A stretch of 64,000 nucleotides of DNA from Nitrospirota bacterium (GTDB lineage Bacteria; Nitrospirota; UBA9217): positions 96,001 through 160,000 of the forward strand of contig CAWBNQ010000011.1 in the NCBI GenBank assembly GCA_963790205.1. Reading direction: 5' to 3'. The notes under the pieces were generated by a model. It did no database searches. It was given only the letters and a program-made list of their open reading frames with translations, and was not told where the DNA came from. Every line of letters begins with the position of its first letter. Position 1 is the stretch's first letter. Both the position numbers and the translations under genes were made by a program. Of this stretch, positions 45,656-59,763 are shown in pieces.

Positions 45656-45979
45656 CCCCGCCTGCTGAAACTGCTCATCTTAATTCAAGGAAATAGTTTG
45701 ACGGAACGTGGAAAATCGATGAGAATATGCCGGTGATGATAGGTGCTCGGGCCACAGCGTTTGCTCTGTCCCCGGGTGGTCGAAGCGTAACCGGCATAAG
45801 TTTGATGTTCAGAAATAAAGATTTTCGAAATACCGCATAAATACTATTGATCGAAAGGAGAAGGCCGACGGTAACACGTGTAATCAGGCGTCACTGGTAT
45901 TATCGTACTATGCAGCAAGGAACATCTTAAATCAGCTCCTGATTTCAAATTTTTAGAATTGAAAGGAGAACGTAAAAGT

Positions 45980-46885
45980 ATGAGGAATCGGTGGAACGCG
46001 CTATCATTGCTGCTGTTGCTCGCCTTCGTGCTAGTCCCTGCTGCCGGTGCGGCACCCGACGCGGCGGCATGCCTCGGTTGTCACGGTTCAATGGAAGGGG
46101 CGGTGAATGTCAACCAGGAAAAATTTTCAAAGTCCGTCCATGGATCGTTTGATTGCGTCACGTGCCATATGACCCTGAAAGGAGCACAGCACGCCGGGCT
46201 CTCCGGCAAAGCCGACGCGGCGACCAGGGCACTGGCCTCCCAGATCTCCCCGAAGAGCAAAATCGATCCTATTGCGCAGGCGGCGTGCGCCCAATGCCAT
46301 GGTGATATTTACCAGGCCTATAAGGGGAGCGTTCATGGGAAGAATGTCATCGATAAAAAATCGACCGACGGTCCTGTCTGTACGAGCTGTCACGGTTCCC
46401 CGCACTATATTCAGCCGAAGGAGAGCAAGGAGTCGGCGGTAAACCACTTCAATGTCGTGCAGACCTGCGGCAAGTGCCATGAAGAAAAATTCATGTCCGA
46501 AAAATACGGCTTCAGCGAACAAGTCATGGAACGGTACAAGGAAAGTTTCCACGGCAGAAAGCTGAAGCTCGGTCACCCCAACGCGCCTTCTTGCGTTGAT
46601 TGTCACGGTTCCCATGATATCATAAGCGATAAGGACCCCGCTTCGCCGGTGGTAGGAGCGAATAAGATAAAGACCTGCAGCAAGTGCCACGCGGGAGCGA
46701 ATGCGAAGTTTGTGGCAGCCATTACCCATCAGCCCCCTCGCCCGATAGCGCATTTCACGGAAATCGCCCTGATCATCCTCACGGTGAGTGTGTTTCTGTT
46801 CATCTGCATCCATGTGCTTTTGGATATCTACGCGGACGTCCGCGACCGTTTGTTCAGGAAAGGAAAAGGAGGCAGCCATGAATAA
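45980..46885 (+). CDS. Seven-heme cytochrome c with C-terminal membrane anchor (CbcA-like)
   Basis: Signal peptide; CLGCH, CVTCH, CAQCH, CTSCH, CGKCH, CVDCH, CSKCH; terminal TM helix with His. Confidence 0.92.
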   Translation: MRNRWNALSLLLLLAFVLVPAAGAAPDAAACLGCHGSMEGAVNVNQEKFSKSVHGSFDCVTCHMTLKGAQHAGLSGKADAATRALASQISPKSKIDPIAQAACAQCHGDIYQAYKGSVHGKNVIDKKSTDGPVCTSCHGSPHYIQPKESKESAVNHFNVVQTCGKCHEEKFMSEKYGFSEQVMERYKESFHGRKLKLGHPNAPSCVDCHGSHDIISDKDPASPVVGANKIKTCSKCHAGANAKFVAAITHQPPRPIAHFTEIALIILTVSVFLFICIHVLLDIYADVRDRLFRKGKGGSHE

Positions 46886-47585
46886 TAAAAATATTCCCAC
46901 GGAGATAGAGAGGTTCGACCTTTCTGCGAGGATCCAGCACGTCATCATGTTCACGACGTTTTTGCTCCTGTCCTTCACCGGATGGGGACTCAAGTATGCG
47001 TATCAGGATCCGGCGAGCGCCTGGATACGGTTCTGGGGCGGCGCGAAGACGGCGGGGATCATACACCGGGCGGCGGGAATCACGATGCTCCTGGATTTCA
47101 TCTACCATCAGTTCTACCTCATCAACCAGGCACGCAAGGGAGGATTTAGGCTGAGCCTTGTTCCCATGCCCAAGGACGTCGTCGATGCGTTCCACAATTT
47201 CATGTACTTCTTCGGCTTCAGGAAGGAAAAACCGTACTTCGGAAAGTTCAACTACATGCAGAAGTTCGACTACTGGGCGGTATATTGGGGCATGTTCATC
47301 ATCGGAGCTTCCGGGTTCTTCCTGGCTTTTCCGGTGACGGTTTCATCGCTTTTTCCCATGTGGTCTATCCAATGGATCTGGGACGTCATCTTTGTCATGC
47401 ACAGCGATGAGGCGCTTCTTGCCATCGTATTCATTCTCATTTTCCATTTCTACAACGAACACCTGCGGTCAGAGGTGTTCCCGATGAACTGGATGTGGCT
47501 GACCGGGAAGATGTCTATTGAACAGCTCAAACATCATCATCCTGCCGAATACGATTATCTTTACGGAGACAAAAAGAAGAAGTAG
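46878..47585 (+). CDS. Di-heme cytochrome b, FdnI/CbcB-like
   Basis: RIQH, IIHR, KFNYMQKFDYWAVYWG, HSDEALLA, HFYNEH. Confidence 0.88.
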   Translation: MNNKNIPTEIERFDLSARIQHVIMFTTFLLLSFTGWGLKYAYQDPASAWIRFWGGAKTAGIIHRAAGITMLLDFIYHQFYLINQARKGGFRLSLVPMPKDVVDAFHNFMYFFGFRKEKPYFGKFNYMQKFDYWAVYWGMFIIGASGFFLAFPVTVSSLFPMWSIQWIWDVIFVMHSDEALLAIVFILIFHFYNEHLRSEVFPMNWMWLTGKMSIEQLKHHHPAEYDYLYGDKKKK

Positions 47586-47597
47586 CGTGACGATGAG

Positions 47598-47631
47598 AAA
47601 AAAACGGCGGCCGGTGAGGCCGCCGTTTTTT
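47598..47631. terminator. Bidirectional terminator between convergent operons
   Basis: A7-CGGCGGCC-loop-GGCCGCCG-T6. Confidence 0.88.
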
Positions 47632-47651: not shown

Positions 47652-48314
47652 TCACGCCAGTTTCTCGAGGGTTCCTTGTTTCATCCTGAACCGCGTAACG
47701 GCCCGAAGGGCAATCTCGGAGCTGTGGGTCACCATGATCATCGTGACCTTCTTCTCGCGGTTGATCTTCTCGAAGAAGGCCATGATCTCGGCCTCCGTTT
47801 CCTCATCGAGGTCACCGGTGGGCTCGTCAGCCAGGATGATCTCGGGTTCGTGAATGAACGCACGGGCAATCGCCACCCGCTGCTGCTCGCCGCCGGAGAG
47901 CTCGGAAGGGTACCGGTCAGCCTTATCTCCGAGTCCGACGAGACGAAGCAGCCGGACCGCGTCGTCCCTCTTTTTTTTGCCGCCGAACACGGTCGGCAGG
48001 AGGACGTTCTCGGTCGCGGTGAGGGTAGGGATGAGGCTGGCGAACTGATATATAAAACCGATCTTCTCGTTCCTCAGTTTCGAGAGTCCTCTGTCGTCAT
48101 AGCTCCGGATGTCGGTCCCATCAAGGATGACCGTGCCCGTATCAGGCCTGGCGATGCCTCCGACAAGGCTCAAAAACGTGCTCTTGCCGGACCCCGAGTG
48201 CCCGACGATCGAGACGAACTTCCCCTGCTCGATGGAGAGATCGACAGGCTGAAGCGCCTGTATGGTTTTTCCGGAGACGGTGTAGCTCTTCGATAATCCT
48301 TTCAGCTCAATCAT
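47652..48314 (-). CDS. ABC ATPase (LolD/MacB-like)
   Basis: MIELKGL, GHSGSGKST, LSGGEQQRVAIARA, ADEPTGDLD, VTH. Confidence 0.92.
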   Translation of the reverse strand: MIELKGLSKSYTVSGKTIQALQPVDLSIEQGKFVSIVGHSGSGKSTFLSLVGGIARPDTGTVILDGTDIRSYDDRGLSKLRNEKIGFIYQFASLIPTLTATENVLLPTVFGGKKKRDDAVRLLRLVGLGDKADRYPSELSGGEQQRVAIARAFIHEPEIILADEPTGDLDEETEAEIMAFFEKINREKKVTMIMVTHSSEIALRAVTRFRMKQGTLEKLA

Positions 48315-48715
48315 GAATTTCCCTTCTTTCTGGTTGATATCACGGTCCCGACAGCGGCTCCGCACATAATGACCGCAGAAACAACGGCGACGAACCGGAT
48401 GCCCGGCACCATGCCGTAATTGCACGGCATCCGGCTGCTGCGGCAGTAGCCGAACTTGTCCGGGAGCAGGAACGCGACGATATATAAAACAATCGACACC
48501 GCCGCGCAGATGATATCGACCGGCCTCCATTTTAAAAAAGCCGTCGCGCTCCCGAGCACGATAAGCAGCGCGCCGACCACGTACTCCGCACGCGCCGTGT
48601 CCGAGCAGTGCATCGCGGGGAATCCCAGGTAGCCGCAGGCGGGAAGAATGAATCGCGGCACCAGAATGAAGAGGAGGCCGCTTACGACGGCGGTTATGAA
48701 GATCAGTTTTTTCAT
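48311..48715 (-). CDS. Cys-containing membrane protein (DUF4418-like)
   Basis: Four hydrophobic segments; PAC...MHC and GYC...MPC. Confidence 0.7.
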   Translation of the reverse strand: MKKLIFITAVVSGLLFILVPRFILPACGYLGFPAMHCSDTARAEYVVGALLIVLGSATAFLKWRPVDIICAAVSIVLYIVAFLLPDKFGYCRSSRMPCNYGMVPGIRFVAVVSAVIMCGAAVGTVISTRKKGNS

Positions 48716-49116
48716 TTGAGCGCTGTTGCAGTTCCGTCGAAATCCATTGCCGCGCCGTACTCCAAAGCCTTGCCTTTATCCGCAAAGGGTGCAATACCCC
48801 ACCCCATGGGAGTTTTGAATTTTTTTTCGGAATGCACGTAGTATGCTTTATGGGCGTCGATCCATTCGCCGGTGTTGTAGTCTTTGACTTCTACGCGAGT
48901 CGCGGACGGCTTTTTTCTTTTCAGATAGGAAAAGAGGTCCCCGATATCGCAGAAATAGAGCGTCTGATCGCCCTGGATGATCCGAGACGTGAATTTTGCG
49001 GCAACATCGCAGGTCATGCCGCATTCAGAGCAATTGACCGTCTCCGCAAACGCTGGTGACGCAATTACGGAAAACCATATCAGGACAACCAGGGCTTTTT
49101 TCGTTACTATGGGCAT
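48712..49116 (-). CDS. nosL: NosL-family metal (Cu) chaperone
   Basis: Signal peptide; CSECGM, YFCDIGD, WIDA, TPMG. Confidence 0.85.
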   Translation of the reverse strand: MPIVTKKALVVLIWFSVIASPAFAETVNCSECGMTCDVAAKFTSRIIQGDQTLYFCDIGDLFSYLKRKKPSATRVEVKDYNTGEWIDAHKAYYVHSEKKFKTPMGWGIAPFADKGKALEYGAAMDFDGTATALK

Positions 49117-49148
49117 AGTGCGCTTCCCTTGCAAATTACAAAAAATAT

Positions 49149-49748
49149 TTACTTCCCCTTTGCATCGATTTCCTTCTTGAGGGCCTGAGCGGTCCCTTCA
49201 TCGAATTTTTTGATTTCGTTGTACTGCTTCAGGGCTTCCGCGCGCCGCCCCTTGTTGAGCAATACGACGCCGAGGTTATAGCGGGCTGTTGCGTAATGCG
49301 GACGCAGGGAGATGGCTTTTTCGAGCGCGGCGATCTGTTCATTTGTTTTTCCCACCATGCCGTATGACGCCGCGAGGTTATTGTAAATCACCGGGTTCTT
49401 TGGGGAATATTTCCCCGCCTTCAGGAAAGGCTTTATCGCTTCCCGGTACTTGCCGAGCCTGTTATAGGCCGTGCCAAGTTGCTCATAGGCGTAGCCGATT
49501 TCTTTCGGTTTGAGGGCGATGACTTTCTTGAGGGCGTCGACCTCCTCCGGGTACATACCGGCCCGGTCGTAGAGATCCGCAAGGTGAAACCATGCGTCCG
49601 TGTCGCGGGGATTGCTTGCGACCCGTTCCCTGAGCACCTGGATATCGGATTTTTGCGGGGCGATCTGGACGGAAGGTCTTTCGTTATCCTTGGAGCAAGC
49701 GGTGAGCATCGTCAGGATTATCAACAGTATGGAAATCCTCCATCGCAT
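49149..49748 (-). CDS. TPR lipoprotein
   Basis: Lipobox LTAC; TPR repeats AWFHLA, YNNLA, ARYNLG. Confidence 0.85.
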   Translation of the reverse strand: MRWRISILLIILTMLTACSKDNERPSVQIAPQKSDIQVLRERVASNPRDTDAWFHLADLYDRAGMYPEEVDALKKVIALKPKEIGYAYEQLGTAYNRLGKYREAIKPFLKAGKYSPKNPVIYNNLAASYGMVGKTNEQIAALEKAISLRPHYATARYNLGVVLLNKGRRAEALKQYNEIKKFDEGTAQALKKEIDAKGK

Positions 49749-50944
49749 TATTCTTCTCTCCTTATGGCTTCATACGGTTCCATCTTTAAAATGGCAAGGG
49801 ACGGCAGGAGGGCGGAAAGCAGACCGGTGGCAAGGGAAAAAATTACCGCGCCGACGATCAGAACGGTCAGATCCGCGGGCGAAGGGAACAGATACGGGAG
49901 TTTTAAATAGTGCAACATAAGGTCTTTAAAGCTCATGAGCAATCCGAAACCGAGAACGACACCGGTTGCGCCGCCGCCTGCCGACAACAGCGATGCCTCA
50001 GACAGAAGGATTGCGGAAATATGGTTTTTATTCGCGCCCATCGCCCGGAGGAGGCCGATTTCACGACGCCGTTCGTTTACGATCATATAAAACGCGAAAG
50101 CCATGATTAAAAGAACGATAAACCAGAGGACGATGCTGATGATGATTATCGCGCGAATAAGACCGGAGAGCTGATTTCTCACCGTGCTGATGACCCTGTC
50201 GGACACCAGGGCCTTTACGCCGCTGATGGCATATTCGATCCTGACGGCTACCCGGTCCGGCGTAATATCGTCGTCCACCTGCACCAGGACCGTTGAGATT
50301 TTGTCCCTTCCGATCTCAATGGGTTGAAGAGCTTTCGTCTTCGATTCCTCGGCCATCTTATAGGCCGCATCGAGGCTCATGAAAACCGCACGATCGAAAA
50401 AGTCCATGCCGGTCGGTTCCATGGTCCCCGCGACCCTGAAATTGGTACCGAAAAAGGGGATCATGTCCCCGACGATGACGGGGACCGACCGGCCGGTGAT
50501 GATCTCGTTGATCCCCAGTTTTCGATTAAGGTTTTTTTCGAGCCAGGGCTTAACCGTAAAGTCGGTTTCCGGGTCGAAGGCCACCAGGAATACGTCTACA
50601 TTGAAGCAGCAGGAAAAACTCGTCGGTTTAATAAAGAGCTGGGGCGTGGCGGCCTTTACCCCCTCAACATGTCTAACACGATCGAGGACCGATCTGTCCA
50701 TCAGAAACTGGGTTGGCTCTCCCGAGAGGAGCGCAGACTTCGCCTTGGCTTCAGCGCTCGCGGGGACCACGAGAATATCGGCGCCGAGACGATAGGTCCC
50801 GATTTTAAGCGCATTATTTATGCTTTTCAGGAAGAGGGTCGCCGTAAACAATGTACACGACACGACGGCGACGATGGCAAATAAAAGCCATGTCCTTGTC
50901 AGCTTTCTCTTCAGGTTCTTAATTGCAACATAGGGAATGTTCAT
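49748..50944 (-). CDS. ABC permease (FtsX/MacB type) with periplasmic SCC motif
   Basis: RLGADILVVP, SFSCC, ERRREIGLLRAMGA, EPYEAIR. Confidence 0.88.
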   Translation of the reverse strand: MNIPYVAIKNLKRKLTRTWLLFAIVAVVSCTLFTATLFLKSINNALKIGTYRLGADILVVPASAEAKAKSALLSGEPTQFLMDRSVLDRVRHVEGVKAATPQLFIKPTSFSCCFNVDVFLVAFDPETDFTVKPWLEKNLNRKLGINEIITGRSVPVIVGDMIPFFGTNFRVAGTMEPTGMDFFDRAVFMSLDAAYKMAEESKTKALQPIEIGRDKISTVLVQVDDDITPDRVAVRIEYAISGVKALVSDRVISTVRNQLSGLIRAIIIISIVLWFIVLLIMAFAFYMIVNERRREIGLLRAMGANKNHISAILLSEASLLSAGGGATGVVLGFGLLMSFKDLMLHYLKLPYLFPSPADLTVLIVGAVIFSLATGLLSALLPSLAILKMEPYEAIRREE

Positions 50945-51033
50945 AATGGCAGTGATTTTTCCTTCGGAGCGGTAAAATTAGGAACGTAGGAACGAAATTA
51001 TTATACCACAAAGCAGGCGGGCAAGTAAAGAGT

Positions 51034-51059
51034 CCGGAGGGCGGGCTGCCGCCCTCCGG
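51034..51059 (-). terminator. Strong hairpin after the propeller gene (partial terminator or stabiliser)
   Basis: CCGGAGGGCGG-loop-CCGCCCTCCGG with weak U tract. Confidence 0.6.
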
Positions 51060-51076
51060 CGTAACTGAAGAAACGG

Positions 51077-52210
51077 TTATTTCTTCCAATCTACGGTAAT
51101 GCCGCAGAGCAGAGGGGATCCTGAATCGATCGCAACCTTTATTCCGTTAGCATTATGGCATGATGCGCACAGGGATACTTCTTCGACGATGGTGTCATCT
51201 TTCATATTCATGACCGCCAGCAAGCTGTCGTCGCTGCCGTACGATCTGGATGCGAGAAGCGCATACCCGTTCTTGGTGAAGGCGAAGTCATGAGGACTGA
51301 GGTTGTTCGGGAGCACAATGCGCTTCACAATGGAGTCCGTCTTTGTGCTGATGATGATCACCTGGTGCGCCTTGGTGCCGCCTTTCAGCACACTCGCGGT
51401 ACCGGCCGTACCGGTCGGATTCAGCTCGAATTCATTCGGAGCGCTCACCCAGAGATATTTGCCGTCCGGCGTCATGCGATCCTGATGGATGAAGGTCATC
51501 TCGGGGCTCGTGATCTCCTTAATTTTCTTCTTCGTCTTCCAGTCATACACGTATACCTTGCCTGCCGGCATGTCGGTGATGTATGCTTTTTTGTCGTTCT
51601 TGGTCCACTGAATGCCGCAGACCGCCATACCAACCGGCATTTTGTCCACGAGCTTGAGCTTTTCCGGGTTCCACACATAGACGTTTCCGTCGGTCATGTC
51701 TTCGAAATAGACGTTGCCGTCCGGACCGGTGATGGCTCCGCAGAACTTCTCGCCGACCTTAAAGGGACCTTCCTTTTTAGCGGCCCTGCCGTTCGCATCG
51801 AGCTCGACCTTGTACACGTTTCCGGCCAGCGTGCCGGCGATCAGGACTTTCTTCCCATGTTCCATCATGAGGGTCTGTCCGTGAGAACCGCCGGACTTTT
51901 TGGCTTGTTCAAAGCTGATGCCCGCGACCTTGCCTTCCATCTCGGAGCCGGCCTCGGTAAGGACGATTCTGTCTTTTTCAACATCGGTCGGCGACTTCAT
52001 GGTCCTCAGATCGAGGATCGCCAGGTGCCCGCCGTGGCCGGCAATGTATGCTATCCCGTCAAAAGTCACGGGTTTGGCCTCTTTCACCACTTTTGCATCG
52101 ACGACGGTCTCAGATGCGGCATTGACTGACGAGCGCAGGGACATGACCATGAAAAGAGCCAAGACGCACACTCCAACGAGACTGATGACTACACTTTTTT
52201 TGAAACTCAT
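51077..52210 (-). CDS. Exported YVTN/YncE-like beta-propeller with His/Cys ring and C-terminal CxxCH
   Basis: Hydrophobic N-terminus; blade motifs GPDGNVY, TKNDKKAYI, TPDGKYLWV; CASCH; SD GGAGG. Confidence 0.75.
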   Translation of the reverse strand: MSFKKSVVISLVGVCVLALFMVMSLRSSVNAASETVVDAKVVKEAKPVTFDGIAYIAGHGGHLAILDLRTMKSPTDVEKDRIVLTEAGSEMEGKVAGISFEQAKKSGGSHGQTLMMEHGKKVLIAGTLAGNVYKVELDANGRAAKKEGPFKVGEKFCGAITGPDGNVYFEDMTDGNVYVWNPEKLKLVDKMPVGMAVCGIQWTKNDKKAYITDMPAGKVYVYDWKTKKKIKEITSPEMTFIHQDRMTPDGKYLWVSAPNEFELNPTGTAGTASVLKGGTKAHQVIIISTKTDSIVKRIVLPNNLSPHDFAFTKNGYALLASRSYGSDDSLLAVMNMKDDTIVEEVSLCASCHNANGIKVAIDSGSPLLCGITVDWKK

Positions 52211-52650
52211 AGTTCCTCCCCTTTAATGAAAGTTGAGCACGATGCGTGCTCAGATTACTCTCTGGATCTCATGCTGACATGTATTCAAATAAGAATCTAC
52301 TTCGTTCTTTATCTGGCCACCTCCTTCTCCGCTTCACACGGAAAAAATGAGTACCCATGGCTTCATTTTTCGAGGCTTCACATTTAAAGAATCAATGGCA
52401 TAATCAATATAGTATAAGTGCACGCAGGGTGTCAACTTCAAATTGTAATTTTACACGTTGCGCTTGTTGCAACTTGCTGTAACAATCAAAAATAATTATG
52501 CATTAATTATGCCGTGGTGAATAGGTGTCAGCGCAAGGATTAAGAAGTGGATCAGGATAGGTTAGCTCAGGCCATACCGTGTAAGCCTCCTTGTGCAACT
52601 GTCGGAGATGCGCGCCTGTATATGCCTGGGGAAGGGGAGAATATGTTGAG

Positions 52651-53065: not shown

Positions 53066-53689
53066 ATGAAAACGTCAAATACAAGAGAGCAGCTCCTGAA
53101 AGCAACCCTGAAGCTCATTTCGGAGAAGGGGTATCTCGGCGCCACGACAAGGGAGATCGCCCATGAGGCGGGCGTGACCGAGCTGACCCTGTTTAGGCAC
53201 TTCGGGTCGAAGGAGCATCTTTTCGAGGAACTGCTGAAGGGCTATACGTTCCTTCCGATGTTGAAAGAGCTCCTGCCCGAGTTGGAGGGGCTTTCCTGCA
53301 AAGAGGCCCTTACGCTGATCGCTACGCGGTTTCTCCTGTCGCTCAAAGAGCGGAAATCCATTGTCAAGATCATGTATTCCGAGGTTACCAGTTATCCCGA
53401 AAAGATCAGGGAAGTCTATAATAAAGTCATAGATGAGATGAGAATAACGCTTGCACGTTACTTCGAGTCCCAGCAGAATCGCGGCGACTTCAGAAAAAAC
53501 ATATCGCCTGAAATGGCTGCCCGTGTGTTCCTGTGGATACTTTTTTCCTATTTCAGATCTGAAGAAATCATGCGTTCCGCAGGAATGAAGAAAAAAGTCA
53601 TGGAAAAAGATGTGCGGGAGATCATTGATATTTTCATGCATGGAACATTGACGGATAACAGTAACCTGTTCAAGGGAGAAATGCCATGA
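53066..53689 (+). CDS. TetR/AcrR-family regulator
   Basis: GYLGATTREIAHEAGVTELTLFRHFGSKEHL. Confidence 0.95.
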   Translation: MKTSNTREQLLKATLKLISEKGYLGATTREIAHEAGVTELTLFRHFGSKEHLFEELLKGYTFLPMLKELLPELEGLSCKEALTLIATRFLLSLKERKSIVKIMYSEVTSYPEKIREVYNKVIDEMRITLARYFESQQNRGDFRKNISPEMAARVFLWILFSYFRSEEIMRSAGMKKKVMEKDVREIIDIFMHGTLTDNSNLFKGEMP

Positions 53690-55251
53690 GGGGGAAGATC
53701 AAACTGAAAATACGACGTATAGCGTTTGCAACTGTCTTCATCCTGGCCCTTACGATCGCTCGGTTTCATCTTGTATATGCGGAAGTGCCGGCGCAGGCGG
53801 ATCAAAATACGACGGTCCCTGAGCAAAAGGCTGAAGAGCCGGCGCTGACGGACCGGAATGCAGCGGTTCCAGCGCAGAAGGCTGAGGCGCCGGCGCAGAC
53901 GAACCAGAAAACTCCGGCCCCGGAACAGAAGGCGGAAGGACCGGCACAGTCAATTCAAAATACGGCAGTCCCTGAGCAGTCGGAAAAGAGTGATCGTTCG
54001 GGTGAAGGCATGATCGCCAAGGATGAGATGCTGACGTTGAGCCGCTGTATCGAGATCGCACTCAAGAAAAACCCGACTATCGTTGCCGCGGTGAATACGG
54101 TGGGCGTCAATCGGAGCAGGGTGGGCGAAGCGCGTTCGGCCTATTACCCGCAGATCAGCGCCACGGGGGCTTACAGCAGGTCTAAATCCGTTACCGTACC
54201 GCAGGTCAATCCGTTCGCGGCAACTGCACCGGTCAATGAATCTTCCGGCACGGTTACACTTAACCAGAACATATATGATTTCGGCAGGACGTCGTCGTCG
54301 GTCGGCATCTCGAAGTATAATCTGGAGTCCTCCCGGTCAGACCTTTCTACAACGGAGGATGTCGCGATCCTGAGCGTAAAACAGGCGTATTACGGAGTGC
54401 TCCAAGCCAGGAGGAACCGGGACGTGGCAGCAGACGTCATAAAACAGTTTCAATTGCACCTGGACCAGGCGCAGGGTTTTTACGCCGTCGGCACGAATGC
54501 GAAAATCGATGTGATCAAGGCTGAAGTGGACCTGAGCAACGCGAAGCTCAGTCTCATCAATGCCGAGAATGCGCTTAAAATAGCATGGGTGACCCTGAAC
54601 AATGTCATGGGGGTCCCTGACGCGCCTGAGTACTCCATTGAGGATAACCTCTCATTCCAGAAGTATCCGATAACCCTGGAGGAAGCGACGGCGAAGGCGT
54701 TTGAGAACAGGCCGGACCTCAAGTCGATCGTCGCCAAAAGGCAGGCCGCAGAAGCGAATATCAGTTTGCAAAGATCAGGTTATTATCCCTTTTTATCGGG
54801 GAACGCAAATTACACCAAGTCCGAATCAACGGTGGATATAGAACCCAGGACATCGAGCAATACCAATTCCTGGGATGTGGGTGTGGCACTTACCTTTCCC
54901 TTGTTCAATGGATTTTTAACCAGTCATCAGGTGGCCGAGGCAAAGTCCTCCTTCTACGTTCTTAAAGCGACTGAAGAAACGGTACGGCAGCAGATACTGC
55001 TCGATGTCCGCCAGGCGTACTTGAACCTGCAGGCGGCGGAGGCCAGCATAGCGACCTCCGAACTTGCATCCAAGCAGGCCAAAGAGAACCTGGATCTTGC
55101 AAACGGCAGATACTCGGCCGGAGTGGGAAGCCCTATCGAGGTTTCCGATGCGTTCGCCACGTATGTCACCGCCCAGGCGAACTATACGAGCGCGCTGGCT
55201 AATTACAAAATCGCCCAGGCGAGTATTGAAAAGGCGATGGGTGCACGGTAG
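53686..55251 (+). CDS. TolC-family outer membrane factor
   Basis: ALKKNP, YYPQI, VKQAYY, RPDL, PLFNG, RYSAGV. Confidence 0.92.
   Translation: MRGKIKLKIRRIAFATVFILALTIARFHLVYAEVPAQADQNTTVPEQKAEEPALTDRNAAVPAQKAEAPAQTNQKTPAPEQKAEGPAQSIQNTAVPEQSEKSDRSGEGMIAKDEMLTLSRCIEIALKKNPTIVAAVNTVGVNRSRVGEARSAYYPQISATGAYSRSKSVTVPQVNPFAATAPVNESSGTVTLNQNIYDFGRTSSSVGISKYNLESSRSDLSTTEDVAILSVKQAYYGVLQARRNRDVAADVIKQFQLHLDQAQGFYAVGTNAKIDVIKAEVDLSNAKLSLINAENALKIAWVTLNNVMGVPDAPEYSIEDNLSFQKYPITLEEATAKAFENRPDLKSIVAKRQAAEANISLQRSGYYPFLSGNANYTKSESTVDIEPRTSSNTNSWDVGVALTFPLFNGFLTSHQVAEAKSSFYVLKATEETVRQQILLDVRQAYLNLQAAEASIATSELASKQAKENLDLANGRYSAGVGSPIEVSDAFATYVTAQANYTSALANYKIAQASIEKAMGAR
53788..53991 (+). repeat. Four 51-bp (17-aa) tandem repeats in the TolC N-terminus
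   Basis: PAQADQNTTVPEQKAEE / PALTDRNAAVPAQKAEA / PAQTNQKTPAPEQKAEG / PAQSIQNTAVPEQSEKS. Confidence 0.85.
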
Positions 55252-55359
55252 TATAAAAATAAATTTGTCGGCAAAAGTGTTATAATATTTTTGCTTAAAA
55301 AGCATATGAGCTTGAGAAAACATGATTTAAAAATGAACAACGAAAGGCTTACAAGAGAC

Positions 55360-56520
55360 ATGAAGTTCAGACCATTAAGCGGCATAGGCATATATGTAAT
55401 CGTTGTTTTACTGCTCTCCCTTTTCATCAGCGCCTGCAATGACAGCAAGGCTAAACAGACGGGACAACGAGTTGTGCCGGTGAAAATAGGGGATGTGACG
55501 CAACAAAACATACCCTTGCAGATCAATGCCATCGGCAATGTAGAAGCCTATAATACCGTTTCAGTGAAAGCCATGGTCGGCGGAGAAGTGACTGGAGTGC
55601 ATTTTAAAGAAGGCCAGGACGTCAAGCAGGGAAGCCTGCTCTTCCAGATAGATCCTCGTCCCTACGATGCCGCGCTCAAGCAGGCCGAAGCACAGCTGGC
55701 ACGGGACGTGGCGCAGGCAAAAAATGCCGAAGATCAGGCCAAGCGGTACGAAATCCTGGTCCAAAAAGACTACGTCTCCAGGGACCAATACGACCAGCTT
55801 CGCGCCAACGCCGATGCTTTGGCGGCCGCTGTCCAGGCGGACAAGGCCAATGTCGAGAACAGCCGTCTTCAACTGGCCTATTGCACCATCAGGTCGCCTA
55901 TCGACGGCCGCGTCGGAAGCGTTCTTATCAACAAGGGCAACGTAATTAAGGCAAACGATCTGGTGATGGTAACCATCAACAAGATAACGCCTATCTATGT
56001 GACCTTTTCCATACCGGAACAGAACCTTTCAGATATAAAAAAGTATATGGCAGCAGGGTCACTGAAGGTGGAGGCCGTCGTTCCTGGAGACGAGAAACGA
56101 CCGGCGCAAGGAGTGCTTACGTTTGTCAATAATGCGGTGGACACAACTACGGGGACCATCCAGCTCAAGGGCACGTTCGAGAACAGGGACAAGAGGCTCT
56201 GGCCCGGACAGTTCGTTAATGTGATAGTAACGCTCACGATCCAAAGGAACGCCGTGGTCATGCCGTCCGCGGCCTTGCAGACAGGACAACAAGGACAGTA
56301 TGTCTTTGTTGTCAAACCAGACTTTACGGTCGAGTCCCGGCCCGTGACGGTCGCGCGGACGTTCGGCGACCTCTCCGTCGTCGCACAAGGGGTGAAGTCA
56401 GGAGAAAAAGTGGTGACCGACGGCCAGCTGCAGCTGATTCCCGGAACGCGAGTAGAACTTAAGGGAGACCAGATGCAACAAGAGGGAAATGACAAATTCC
56501 AAACGCCCGATCACAAATAA
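55360..56520 (+). CDS. RND adaptor subunit (MdtA-like)
   Basis: Lipobox ISAC; FQIDPRPY, IRSPIDG, DTTTGT, LWPGQF; start uncertain. Confidence 0.9.
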   Translation: MKFRPLSGIGIYVIVVLLLSLFISACNDSKAKQTGQRVVPVKIGDVTQQNIPLQINAIGNVEAYNTVSVKAMVGGEVTGVHFKEGQDVKQGSLLFQIDPRPYDAALKQAEAQLARDVAQAKNAEDQAKRYEILVQKDYVSRDQYDQLRANADALAAAVQADKANVENSRLQLAYCTIRSPIDGRVGSVLINKGNVIKANDLVMVTINKITPIYVTFSIPEQNLSDIKKYMAAGSLKVEAVVPGDEKRPAQGVLTFVNNAVDTTTGTIQLKGTFENRDKRLWPGQFVNVIVTLTIQRNAVVMPSAALQTGQQGQYVFVVKPDFTVESRPVTVARTFGDLSVVAQGVKSGEKVVTDGQLQLIPGTRVELKGDQMQQEGNDKFQTPDHK

Positions 56521-56619
56521 ATGCGTAATGTCGATGAATCAATGATTAAATATTCGATCAGCGGCGTACTGCATTTATTTGATTTTTGATGCGTAAGAAT
56601 TGGAGCTTGAACTAAGACT

Positions 56620-59600
56620 ATGAACTTAGCGGAACCCTTCATACGCAGGCCGGTCATGACGACGCTGGTCATGTCTGCGATTCTGCTGTTCGGTATCATG
56701 GCATACCGGCTGCTTCCGGTGAGCGATCTGCCGAACGTCGATTTCCCGACCATCCTGGTGAACGCAAGTCTTCCCGGAGGGAGCCCGGAGACCATGGCCT
56801 CGGCAGTGGCGACGCCGCTGGAGCAGCAGTTCTCGACCATAGCAGGCCTCGACAACATGACGTCCACGAGCGCGCTCGGGTCGACTCAGATAACGCTCCA
56901 GTTCAACCTGAGCCGGAACATCGACGGCGCGGCCCAGGATGTCCAAGCCATGATCGCAAAGGCCGCGCCTCTTCTTCCCCCGGACATGCCGACTCCGCCG
57001 ACCTATCAAAAGGTCAACCCAGCGGATCAGCCGATTCTCTATCTCGCGATTAATTCTCCGACGCTCCAGCTTTCGGCCGTGGACGAATACGCCGAGACGA
57101 CGATGTCCCAGCGGATATCGATGATAAGCGGCGTGGCCCAGGTGCAGGTGTTCGGTTCCCAGAAGTACGCCGTGCGCGCCCAGCTCGACCCGCGCGCTCT
57201 TGCTTCACGCGGCATAGGGATCGATGATGTATCGAAAGCGGTCGCGAGCGGGAACGTGAATCTGCCCACGGGGACCCTGCAGGGTTCCTCGAAGTCATTT
57301 ACCATATTAGCGAGCGGACAGCTCATGGATGCGGCGGCCTACCGTCCTCTCATCGTGGCGTACCGCAACGGCAATCCCGTCAGGCTCCAGGAACTCGGCA
57401 GGGTAATTGACAGCGTGGAGAACGACAAGATCGCGAGTTGGTTCAACACGAGCACCAGGAGCACAAGGGCCGTGATTCTGGCGATCCAGCGTCAGCCCGG
57501 CACCAATACCGTTGAAGTGGTCGACTCCATCAAGAAACTTCTGCCGACGTTCCGGTCAGAGATGCCGGCATCGGTGAATCTCGACGTCCTCTACGACCGG
57601 TCGCTGTCCATCAGGGATTCGGTGAATGACGTGAAGTTCACGCTGGGACTGGCAATCGTCCTCGTCGTGCTCGTCATCTTCCTGTTTTTGCGCAATCTCT
57701 CGGCAACGATCATCCCGAGCCTGGCGCTCCCCATGTCGATTATCGGCACATTCACGGTGATGTTCCTGCTCGGTTACAGCGTGGACAACCTTTCTCTCAT
57801 GGCCATGATTCTCGCTGTCGGATTCGTGGTCGACGACGCCATTGTGATGCTCGAAAACATCGTGCGCCATATGGAGCAGGGAGAACCGGTGCTTCAGGCA
57901 TCTCTCAACGGATCGAAAGAGATCGGTTTTACCATCCTTTCCATGACGTTCTCGCTGGTCGCGGTCTTTATCCCCGTGCTCTTCATGGGCGGAATTCTCG
58001 GCCGGCTGCTGCATGAATTCGCCGTGGTGATCAGCGTGGCCATCCTCGTGTCGGGAGTCGTGTCGCTTACGCTTACACCCATGCTCAGCAGCCGGTTTCT
58101 CCGGCCTCATGGCAAGGAACGACACGGCAGGCTTTATATGGCCCTGGAACATTTTTTCGACAATATGCTGAACAGCTACGAAACCAGCCTGCAGTGGGTG
58201 CTCGGACACCGCAGGATGATGCTTATCATCACCGCCGCGCTTTTCTTCGTGACGATTATCCTTTTTTACCTCATCCCAAAAGGATTTCTTCCTACCGAGG
58301 ACACGGGCCAGATCTTCGCCTTTACCGAGGCGCAGCAGGGAATTTCCTTTGACGACATGGCGAAACACCAGAAGGAGCTCATGGCAATCGTGGCCAAGGA
58401 CCCGAACATTGACGAGTTCATGTCGAGCATCGGAGCCGGGGGGCCGAATGCAGCCGCCAACACCGGACGCATGTTCATCAGACTGAAGCCCCGTTCGGAA
58501 CGCAAGCTCTCCGCCGACGAGATCATCCAGGAACTGCGGAAAAAAACGGCCGGCGTCATAGGCATCGGGATGTTCATGCAGAACCTGCCTCCCATCCGCA
58601 TCGGCGGCACGCTCACCAAGAGCCAGTATCAGTACACGCTTCAGAGCCCGGATACGAACGAGCTGTATAAGGCCGCTCCCGCACTGGAAGCGAAGCTGCG
58701 CGCCATCCCGCAACTCCAGGATGTGACCAGCGATCTGCAGATCAAGAACCCGCAGGTGAGCCTTGACATAGACCGCGACAAGGCGGCTGCCCTGGGCGTC
58801 ACGGCCCAGCAGATCGAAAACGCGCTCAGCACTGCTTATAGCACGCTCCAGGTATCGAACATCCTTGCGCCCACGAACCAGTACAAGGTCATCATGGAAC
58901 TGTTACCCCAGTATCAGACGGATCCGTCCGCGCTCGCCATGCTGTATATCCGTTCGTCTTCGGGGGCTCTCGTGCCGCTTACGGTGGTTACCAAACCTTC
59001 CGTGGGCACGGGCCCGCTCCTCATCAACCACCTCGGCCAGCTCCCTGCCGTGACCCTTTCCTTTAACCTGAGGCCGGGCGTTTCGCTCAGCGAGGCCGTT
59101 GCCGCTGTTGACAAAGCCTCCAAGGCGACGCTGCCGGCTTCGATCACAACCAGTTTCCAGGGGACGGCGCAGGCATTCCAGTCGTCCACGCAGGGACTGT
59201 TCCTCCTCCTGATTTTGGCCGTCCTGGTCATCTACATCGTGCTCGGCATCCTGTATGAGAGCTTCATCCATCCGCTTACGATACTCTCCGGATTGCCTGC
59301 CGCAGGCGTGGGGGCGCTTGTGACGCTCCTCCTTTTCGGAAAGGAACTCAATATTTACGGTTATGTGGGGGTCATCATGCTCATAGGGATCGTGAAAAAG
59401 AACGCCATCATGATGATCGACTTCGCGCTCGAGGCCGAACGCAAACACGGTAAAAGTCCCCAGGACGCAATCTACGAAGGGGCGGTCGTCCGTTTTCGCC
59501 CCATTATGATGACCACCATGTCGGCCTTGATGGGGACACTCCCGATCGCGATCGGGTTCGGCGCCGGCGCCGAAGCGCGTCGGCCGCTGGGTCTTGCAGT

Positions 59601-59763
59601 GGTCGGGGGCCTGGTCTTTTCTCAATTGCTGACCCTCTATATTACGCCGGTTATCTATATATACCTGGATACGTTCCAGCAGAGATTCGGCAAACTTGCT
59701 CTTTTCCGCACCAGAGAGGAACAGGGGCCTAAGTCTCAGGAAAGAACACGTCCAGCACTATAG
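56620..59763 (+). CDS. RND permease (MdtB/MdtC-like)
   Basis: FIRRPVMT, LPNVDFPTI, GFVVDDAIV, GIVKKNAIMM, RFRPIMMTT. Confidence 0.95.
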   Translation: MNLAEPFIRRPVMTTLVMSAILLFGIMAYRLLPVSDLPNVDFPTILVNASLPGGSPETMASAVATPLEQQFSTIAGLDNMTSTSALGSTQITLQFNLSRNIDGAAQDVQAMIAKAAPLLPPDMPTPPTYQKVNPADQPILYLAINSPTLQLSAVDEYAETTMSQRISMISGVAQVQVFGSQKYAVRAQLDPRALASRGIGIDDVSKAVASGNVNLPTGTLQGSSKSFTILASGQLMDAAAYRPLIVAYRNGNPVRLQELGRVIDSVENDKIASWFNTSTRSTRAVILAIQRQPGTNTVEVVDSIKKLLPTFRSEMPASVNLDVLYDRSLSIRDSVNDVKFTLGLAIVLVVLVIFLFLRNLSATIIPSLALPMSIIGTFTVMFLLGYSVDNLSLMAMILAVGFVVDDAIVMLENIVRHMEQGEPVLQASLNGSKEIGFTILSMTFSLVAVFIPVLFMGGILGRLLHEFAVVISVAILVSGVVSLTLTPMLSSRFLRPHGKERHGRLYMALEHFFDNMLNSYETSLQWVLGHRRMMLIITAALFFVTIILFYLIPKGFLPTEDTGQIFAFTEAQQGISFDDMAKHQKELMAIVAKDPNIDEFMSSIGAGGPNAAANTGRMFIRLKPRSERKLSADEIIQELRKKTAGVIGIGMFMQNLPPIRIGGTLTKSQYQYTLQSPDTNELYKAAPALEAKLRAIPQLQDVTSDLQIKNPQVSLDIDRDKAAALGVTAQQIENALSTAYSTLQVSNILAPTNQYKVIMELLPQYQTDPSALAMLYIRSSSGALVPLTVVTKPSVGTGPLLINHLGQLPAVTLSFNLRPGVSLSEAVAAVDKASKATLPASITTSFQGTAQAFQSSTQGLFLLLILAVLVIYIVLGILYESFIHPLTILSGLPAAGVGALVTLLLFGKELNIYGYVGVIMLIGIVKKNAIMMIDFALEAERKHGKSPQDAIYEGAVVRFRPIMMTTMSALMGTLPIAIGFGAGAEARRPLGLAVVGGLVFSQLLTLYITPVIYIYLDTFQQRFGKLALFRTREEQGPKSQERTRPAL

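Follow-up and report, generated by a model that had tools for sequence, protein, structure and literature searches.

What does a short exported beta-propeller do when it carries its own haem c motif and is encoded with an ABC transporter and a NosL-family protein? The question is raised by six genes at positions 47652–52210 (minus strand) of the window, by which we mean the whole 64,000-nucleotide stretch analyzed (positions 96,001–160,000 of contig CAWBNQ010000011.1, assembly GCA_963790205.1). The host is a Nitrospirota bacterium with a 4.34-Mb genome that is 98% complete, and we refer to the proteins of the operon as P0001–P0006, P0001 being the lead protein. An earlier note, made from the letters of the window without database searches, had proposed a periplasmic haem-plus-metal-cluster enzyme served by a nos-like maturation kit. 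We find that the propeller system is real and conserved and apparently undescribed, and we lean toward reading P0001 as a periplasmic haem c–copper redox enzyme that would be loaded by a dedicated ABC machine, a reading built on sequence comparisons and a predicted structure. No description of the six-gene system was found in the literature searched, which lay mostly outside subscription papers, and a term look-up in the main text of PMC13657043 and PMC13510729 returned no passage on the P0001 protein.

The six open reading frames (ORFs) are all intact and were assigned to families with Pfam and NCBIfam. The five genes downstream of the lead gene overlap by 1–4 nucleotides (nt) or are spaced by 32 nt, in agreement with the packed operon that the earlier note had described.

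The lead protein combines a haem c motif with a conserved Cys/His set

The lead gene (51077–52210; this and the other features of the operon are on the minus strand) encodes a 377-residue protein with a Sec-type N-terminus, a predicted six-bladed beta-propeller and candidate haem c–copper enzyme. Its AlphaFold2 model, computed from a 138-sequence alignment, has a pLDDT of 90.4 and a pTM of 0.86. The modeled strands form six blades, a C-terminal strand closes the ring, and a short helix that follows blade 6 carries the CxxCH haem c motif (C348, C351 and H352; 51155–51169). Six residues, H110 (51881–51883), C157 (51740–51742), C198 (51617–51619), H242 (51485–51487), H307 (with D308; 51290–51292) and C369 (51104–51106), each stand six residues ahead of the turn, either on a blade's first strand or immediately before it; in order, they mark where blades 2 to 6 and the strand that closes blade 1 start. 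Judged by blade position rather than by distances, the ligand side chains may converge on the hub and channel mouth. All the motifs listed in the earlier note are there: SHG (H110), FCG (C157), VCG (C198), IHQ (H242), PHD (H307), LCG (C369), GHGGH (H59, H62) and CASCH (348–352).

Every one of 138 near homologues (55–93% identity) has the six His/Cys residues, CxxCH, D171, D213, M214, N259, E260, D308 and R322, and H59, H62 and M172 are conserved in 137/138; because they are invariant or nearly so, the motif residues are not a product of chance. The x positions of CxxCH vary freely among the same sequences and the motif itself is invariant, and 126/138 have five Cys within their last 335 residues. 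Fifteen positions remain invariant in a wider set of 23 sequences that extends down to 30% identity: H62, C157, M172, C198, D213, M214, H242, H307, D308, R322, D328, C348, C351, H352 and C369. H62, in a GGH loop (52025–52027), is shared by all three clades compared, and C157 by the near, distant and sister clades; position 110 is occupied by His in 138/138 near homologues and also throughout the sister clade comparison, and one distant group usually has Asp there. The conservation that the earlier note had made a test of its proposal is therefore near-complete in the 138 homologues, but the ring of three His and three Cys is whole only in the near family.

The N-terminal helix is signal-like in both sequence and model, and a Tat motif occurs in 0/138 near homologues. 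P0001 thus combines what is expected of a c-type cytochrome, namely CxxCH, predicted export and a maturation system in the host, whose Cytochrom_C_asm (CcsA-family) genes score above cut-off. CxxCH, the lack of a Tat motif and the CcsA-family genes together fit export through Sec and attachment of haem c. Structural disulfides as the role of the Cys residues are disfavored: three Cys are not part of the haem motif, and C198 gives way to His in the sister clade while C157 stays. Since C198 is swapped for His with both C157 and C369 kept, metal binding fits better than a C157–C198 disulfide.

A word-indexed search with P0001 returned 546 homologues at E ≤ 0.001, labeled, where they have a name at all, 'hypothetical' or 'YncE' among the best 120 matches listed. 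The two best clusters in the ESM Atlas are unnamed Nitrospirota clusters, probably of the P0001 family, and gave no functional lead.

A Cys–Cys permease is the constant partner of the propeller

Downstream of the lead gene lie genes for a MacB/FtsX-type ABC permease (P0002, 49748–50944; Pfam FtsX 77.8 bits, MacB_PCD 33.9 bits), a TPR lipoprotein (P0003, 49149–49748; Pfam TPR repeats, lipobox LTAC), a NosL-family copper chaperone (P0004, 48712–49116; Pfam), a DUF4418 membrane protein (P0005, 48311–48715; Pfam) and a LolD/FtsE-like ABC ATPase (P0006, 47652–48314; Pfam ABC_tran 119.6 bits). The Cys clusters noted earlier in three of them are present, as SCC (C112, C113) in the permease, CxxCGM, FCDxxD and TPMG in NosL, and PAC, MHC, YC and PC in the DUF4418 protein. 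NosD is not among the five accessory genes, and the rest of the genome was not searched for nosD.

We counted partners at loci with at least 4.5 kb of downstream sequence, in genome, metagenome and handle sets that overlap in part and include kin that are not independent. The propeller gene is followed by the permease at 54 of 58 genome loci, 27 of 27 metagenome loci and 19 of 19 handle loci, by the TPR gene at 53, 27 and 6, and by the ATPase at 52, 26 and 14, respectively; the corresponding figures are 20, 14 and 4 for NosL and 19, 14 and 8 for DUF4418. NosL counts are those within the operon and replace a 34-locus tally that took in NosL-like genes outside it. The four genome loci without the permease are, by record title, second copies, and the isolate's other locus has the permease (three) or is cut off (one). 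The 'nos-like maturation kit' therefore needs recasting: the NosL family is present, but the constant partner is a Cys–Cys MacB-type ABC system, with NosL (20/58) and DUF4418 (19/58) optional and the TPR lipoprotein absent from distant clades. The proposal of a periplasmic haem-plus-metal propeller with its own loading machinery is supported by the conserved CxxCH/His/Cys protein and its constant ABC partner; the 'nos-like' core is not.

The permease is distinguished by a Cys pair in its periplasmic domain (C112–C113, 50606–50611), which is present in 132/133 sequences, invariant in 93 alignment rows and found in 1/13 MacB-like permeases of the host genome. P0002 consists of MacB_PCD and FtsX domains, is paired with a LolD-like ATPase and scores below the cut-offs of the named LolC/E, MacB and FtsX members; being of MacB/FtsX type, it is not a NosY-type permease. 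P0004 matches NosL (PF05573) with 46.3 bits (cut-off 24), and its C29, C32, M34, C56, D60 and M105 correspond by motif and spacing to C59, C62, M64, C88, D92 and M145 of Shewanella (S. denitrificans) NosL, the six intrachain ligands of its Zn/Cu site. The signal of P0004 terminates at AFA-ET and offers no lipobox Cys as an anchor, which makes it a soluble type. P0005 matches DUF4418 (PF14387) with 66.4 bits (cut-off 27) over 110/117 positions; its conserved C27, M35-x-C37, C91 and M96-x-C98 reflect a pattern of four Cys and two Met, C..MxC twice, with the Cys kept in 44–48 of 48 homologues. A lipobox-like Cys is present in 84/111 homologues of P0003.

P0002-like permeases occur at E ≤ 1e-30 in 65 of 201 genomes of the phylum. 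Of twenty such loci analyzed for which a P0001-type propeller gives no explanation, 19 have the Cys–Cys pair; upstream stand a sister-type propeller (6), permuted propellers (2), a TcDH homologue (3) or no propeller (8). The TcDH homologues are near full-length matches to solved TcDH (E 1e-153 to 1e-198, two tested). They are encoded in dsrA-bearing Nitrospirota (L218:5299–8961, L220:5744–9383 and L221:5266–8939), each followed by the Cys–Cys permease and ATPase; the L220 and L221 proteins have a twin-arginine start, and the part of the L218 protein read has none. In a quick maximum-likelihood tree with SH-aLRT support, without bootstrap and with long outgroup branches, 60 Cys–Cys-type permeases fall on one side of a branch (99) from eight other permeases of the host genome, the three TcDH-linked permeases lie inside the Cys–Cys group, on P0002's side (97), and the permease groups track the kind of propeller that precedes them. 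Among the kits without an adjacent propeller, L209 and L210 have NosL/DUF4418. In L211 and L212 the kit is preceded by YeeE and a small protein rich in Met, and the locus also has a CcsA-family gene (L211) or a NosL-like gene (L212).

A sister propeller clade often lies beside a different copper-chaperone gene

A second propeller clade (L222–L227, L229–L248) aligns with the P0001 type over its full length (hhalign probability 99.8, E 7e-30). It retains H62, H110, C157, H307–D308, CxxCH and C369, has the His of FxHG in place of C198 and has Arg near H242. The Cys–Cys permease gene is adjacent at 25 of 26 sister loci, a PCuAC gene at 17 and a NosL-like gene at 3; with 2 distant loci, PCuAC is found at 19, all above the Pfam cut-off. 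The two propeller clades thus have copper chaperones of two unrelated families, NosL and PCuAC, beside them, and TcDH, a known copper enzyme of propeller type, has the transporter in common with them. Copper is backed by the permeases linked to TcDH, by the PCuAC genes next to sister-clade propellers and by the retention of all six intrachain NosL ligands.

The P0001-type propeller is found in 41/201 genomes (44 matches, three weak ones at E 1e-9 to 1e-11 being left out), the sister type in 29/201 and either type in 66. Propeller and permease travel together, the permease being present in 63/66 propeller genomes and the propeller in 63/65 permease genomes. In the host family (44 genomes, kin again not independent, so that the p-value is overstated) the P0001 type occurs in 21, the sister type in 18 and both in 2, where 8.6 would be expected; this near-exclusion fits two forms of one job. 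One form or the other is present in 37/44 of these genomes, which makes it probable that the reaction is a central one for these bacteria of sediment and soil. The carriers are sulfate-reducer-type Nitrospirota, and dsrA is present in 65/66 propeller genomes; that of the host itself (G000:C14:63709–64855) is split across two frames by a frameshift or assembly error.

Neighboring genes point in part to sulfur or selenium. A YeeE/YedE transporter gene lies directly upstream of the propeller at 5/68 genome loci, 0/41 metagenome loci and 7/20 handle loci, and other sulfur or selenium neighbors are confined to single loci. No nitrogen-cycle gene recurs among the neighbors of 79 loci. At L186–L191, where YeeE is directly upstream, there are also a divergent substrate-binding protein, TPR, a YedE selenium-type transporter and a cysteine desulfurase-like gene, with Cys-tipped beta-barrel-like genes and an FtrD-like gene downstream. 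Recognized by eye from sequence starts are five-haem ExtKL/MccSep-like proteins next to two loci (L072:2650–3930, L227:9744–11078) and a rhodanese-like gene near another (L071:805–1797).

A search of 1.84 billion representatives with a profile hidden Markov model (HMM) found the HD..CxxCH..CG pattern in 10 of the best 150 matches. One relative, P0136, has a cytochrome c domain inserted in the propeller, and another, P0140, is a 2470-residue surface-type fusion that encloses the propeller and has C369 replaced; the word-indexed search, a weak test, found no fused forms of greater length. Distant relatives P0130, P0135, P0137 and P0148 and those of L062–L064 end in a flexible Gly-Cys tail, reminiscent of sulfur-carrier arms, that P0001 lacks. 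Selenocysteine in these tails was rejected, as the three readable ones stop at TAA/TAG. In L215:5887–7071 and L216:5586–6845 the propeller is circularly permuted and lipoprotein-like, and the L215 gene stands behind an ExtI-family porin gene.

A copper enzyme is favored over a carrier, a haem–Cys site or a NosZ analogue

In the mechanism that we propose, the apo-protein would be exported through Sec and receive haem from a CcsA-type system. Cu(I) would be carried on NosL, or on PCuAC in the sister clade, and then passed to the Cys–Cys pair of the permease, whose ATP-driven movement would insert copper in the propeller hub. The DUF4418 protein might keep thiols reduced or relay Cu(I), and the TPR lipoprotein might hold the apo-protein near the membrane. 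The mature protein would have a copper site of conserved Cys, His and Met at the mouth of the central channel and one covalent haem c. In turnover, a small substrate would meet the copper site and the haem would exchange electrons with periplasmic cytochromes, a role like that of CuA in NosZ or of cytochrome c552 for TcDH. Given the host type, the partial YeeE linkage and the TcDH parallel, we tentatively suggest an inorganic sulfur compound (thiosulfate, polysulfide or sulfide) as the substrate. More speculative is the idea that these propellers are a new family of haem c–copper enzymes whose six blades hold a thiolate-rich multi-copper, possibly copper–sulfide, cluster, that they carry out a so far unassigned periplasmic sulfur step for most species of a major uncultured family of Nitrospirota, and that the Cys–Cys MacB-type ABC system might be a general copper inserter for propellers (the P0001 family, TcDH and perhaps L-NosZ), parallel to NosDFY.

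Several observations weigh against a haem c–copper enzyme with this machinery. The ligand set is not fixed: H59 is lost in 5/23 and H110 in 7/23 sequences of the wide alignment, and the sister clade differs at C198 and H242, so that the set is looser than usual for a catalytic cluster. Six relatives (P0141, P0175, P0188, P0207, P0230 and P0239) keep CxxCH with most ring ligands gone, possibly as a haem-only or non-catalytic branch. NosL stands beside only 20/58, 14/27 and 4/19 loci of the three sets, and the family is described in literature excerpts as also serving non-nos clusters. Eight Cys–Cys permease loci have no adjoining propeller, and no such permease was found beside L-NosZ in eleven regions around Nitrospirota L-NosZ matches and other leads. 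The dsrA link is confounded by kinship, and 37/102 dsrA genomes have neither propeller type; YeeE is upstream at 0/41 metagenome loci and is not in this window. In a second sampled phylum, the propeller occurs in the seed genome only, of 301.

In one alternative, the propeller would be a non-catalytic periplasmic carrier or store of Cu(I), with the ABC system moving copper across or along the membrane to other cuproenzymes in a sulfidic habitat and the haem only setting the copper redox state. We regard this as unlikely, although no other alternative fares better. A soft Cys/His/Met ligand set that differs between clades would suit it, as would two unrelated chaperones alongside FtrD-like, CusF-like (below cut-off) and thioredoxin-like neighbors, the permease–NosL–DUF4418 kits without an adjoining propeller (L209, L210) and a need for copper that the two COX1-family genes of the host could create. 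Yet the same permease clade stands behind TcDH homologues, which are enzymes, the invariant second-shell-type residues D213, D308, R322 and D328 suit a catalytic pocket, and a fixed haem motif would be unusual in a store.

The chaperones would be incidental if the active site were instead the haem with a distal Cys as sulfur carrier, or if the hub metal were Fe, Zn or Ni. In TsdA and SoxA, haem has Cys as its distal ligand and sulfur carrier. C369 and CxxCH, 17 residues apart, are the most conserved pair in P0001, and the YeeE, rhodanese-like and ExtI/ExtKL-like neighbors would point to sulfur transfer; the C-terminal Gly-Cys tails of some relatives and the FtrD-like genes nearby also speak for this reading. 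This alternative is nonetheless improbable, because two unrelated copper-chaperone families stand beside two clades independently and five or six further ligands are too many for one haem. Least probable of all is a haem–copper reductase of N2O, NO, hydroxylamine or O2, a compact NosZ analogue in which haem c would replace CuA: NosL in the operon, a hub position in common with CuZ ligands, L-NosZ as the best though weak NCBIfam match, the MacB-type transporter of clade III nosZ clusters (in passages of the review PMC13685413) and a niche left open by the lack of NosZ and L-NosZ in the genome speak for it, but the match reaches 35 bits against a cut-off of 700, P0001 has six blades, no CuA domain and three Cys for His, and the 79 loci have no recurrent nitrogen-cycle neighbor and, in part of them, sulfur or selenium transport genes.

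If the haem c–copper reading is right, the six-gene intact locus offers a small test case for copper chemistry with a Cys/His/Met and haem c ligand set, and Cys112–Cys113 a specific residue pair that bears on copper insertion by a MacB-type transporter. Current metabolic reconstructions probably lack the reaction, the gene being labeled YncE or hypothetical there.

Regulatory elements and flanking genes

Upstream of the lead gene is a sigma-70-type promoter-like site, TTGACA-18-TATATT (52406–52435), assigned by an 11/12 consensus match only; GTTGACAC is retained in 9/16 of the upstream regions aligned. Some 110 nt ahead of the start codon, on the 3' arm of a hairpin, lies a perfect Shine–Dalgarno-like element without a start, AAGGAGGTG (52318–52326). 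It is present in 16/16 near upstream regions and at 37/70 genome loci (at 30 of these no start codon follows), compared with 15/1614 ORFs of the host genome as a control. The element is reminiscent of STAB-SD elements, which stabilize mRNA, and is possibly such a site or could be a regulatory switch.

The hairpin that the earlier note had placed between the lead and accessory genes is there (51034–51059), with an 11-pair stem of which 10 are GC (spacer z = −2.85), and may act as a weak terminator or 3' stabilizer. The first 70 nt of 56 homologous spacers have a median energy of −27.3 kcal/mol, compared with −16.5 for shuffles; we rely on medians because a threshold of −12 kcal/mol is met by 86% of shuffles and does not discriminate. 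Together, the start-less element and the spacer hairpin would be compatible with higher levels of the lead transcript than of the accessory transcripts. An extended −10 promoter-like site precedes the permease gene (51000–51029), with a similar motif in 15/56 spacers, a count without a control. A hairpin between an A run and a T run (47598–47631), recognized from sequence, is a likely two-way terminator between the operon and the convergent cytochrome genes.

Those genes (45959–47585, plus strand) encode a multihaem cytochrome c (302–308 residues) and a cytochrome b, and their synteny holds at 15/79 loci. We rejected the pair as a component of the system, as it is found at those 15/79 loci only, lies on the opposite strand and is present at 0/26 sister-clade loci; it is a possible quinol-linked electron partner. 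On the other side (53066–59763, plus strand) are TetR regulator, TolC-like, membrane-fusion and RND genes, an ordinary efflux operon with upstream synteny at 14–17/79 loci. Elsewhere in the host genome, a second NosL-family gene (C5, ~344000–350000; L207) is clustered with thioredoxin-like, CC-tipped barrel-like and FtrD-like genes, and the sole PCuAC-like gene is at C3:440418–440933.

Comparison with known systems

Sequence, profile and structure searches of P0001 gave no full-length match to a characterized enzyme, in line with the earlier note. The best matches of solved sequence are 1L0Q and 3BWS, and the Cys/His set is in neither of the two alignments shown. The best fold match is 1NPE, of the YWTD/NHL type (Z 24.7, root-mean-square deviation 2.8, 253 aligned residues, 12% identity); propellers of this type are six-bladed. 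Among the matches listed, Foldseek and VIA-align gave generic propellers only, which does not exclude other families. P0001 resembles YncE/YVTN and YWTD propellers, hydrazine synthase beta and NirF/NirN in repeat type and fold only, and all the scores fall far below the curated cut-offs; YncE and hydrazine synthase beta were rejected as its family.

Two sulfur-converting enzymes offer looser parallels. Methanethiol oxidase (SBP56) is a copper-dependent propeller that acts on a sulfur compound; P0001 has no match to its model NF052453, and a relative at L181 reaches 37.9 bits against a cut-off of 650. The Cu(I) of MccA has Cys ligation. To judge by the title of the paper describing it, MccA joins haem c and copper in a sulfur-compound reductase, a likeness to our proposal, but it is an octahaem cytochrome rather than a propeller, and no sequence or fold match of P0001 to it was among those listed.

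NosZ and TcDH hold copper in a propeller hub, according to passages of PMC8457098, PMC13685413 and PMC9456337. P0001 is not a NosZ of clade I or II, as no NosZ model in NCBIfam matches it at E ≤ 0.05, nor are NosZ (TIGR04244 without match), L-NosZ or TcDH homologues found in the 98% complete host genome. In NosZ, seven His residues act as ligands in a propeller of seven blades and there is a C-terminal CuA cupredoxin domain, whereas P0001 has six blades, Cys at three of six blade positions and no such Pfam domain, ending 8 residues after C369; the earlier note was right that it is far shorter than NosZ and has no CuA domain. The NosZ cluster has nosD, nosF and nosY where that of P0001 has the FtsX/MacB permease, TPR, NosL, DUF4418 and LolD-like ATPase genes. 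L-NosZ (NF052460) is the best NCBIfam match of P0001 but a weak one, with 35.3 bits against a cut-off of 700 and 120 profile columns; true L-NosZ proteins in the phylum, of ~580 residues, score 748–751 bits. TcDH was rejected likewise, with no match to solved TcDH at E ≤ 1 and a profile match of 67 positions (E ~4e-5); it has seven blades, ~500 residues, usually a Tat signal and no CxxCH, in contrast to the six blades, Cys-rich set and own haem motif of P0001.

The likenesses lie in architecture. NosZ and L-NosZ, as described in the parts of the literature drawn on here, have their metal ligands where the first strand of one blade after another lies and are assembled in the periplasm by an ABC system with NosL; P0001 has its ligand-type residues in the same places and would be assembled in a similar way. 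hhalign pairs the IHQ and PHD motifs of P0001 with IHH and PHG of L-NosZ, so that H242 aligns with the HH motif and H307 with the PHG His, and the ligand register of P0001 is that of the PHG His in NosZ and L-NosZ and of the PAHQ His in a TcDH homologue, although the pattern caught only some His of those enzymes. Passages of a 2026 review (PMC13685413) place a MacB-type transporter, its role left open, in clade III nosZ clusters and state that the tetranuclear copper–sulfur cluster is on record for a single enzyme. With TcDH (PDB 5F75, 5OEX and 8Q9X), as far as the sources consulted describe it, P0001 would share a periplasmic propeller, tunnel copper, a cytochrome c partner and ABC genes downstream; in Thioalkalivibrio, as reported in part of PMC5328954, TcDH clusters continue immediately downstream with genes for an ABC permease and an ATPase, whose role in copper acquisition is a guess, and three Nitrospirota loci with TcDH homologues have the same Cys–Cys permease clade as P0002. 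These comparisons suggest that P0001 is likely a variant within the class of copper beta-propeller enzymes, one that has its own haem motif and a ligand set rich in Cys and that would work most like TcDH and NosZ.

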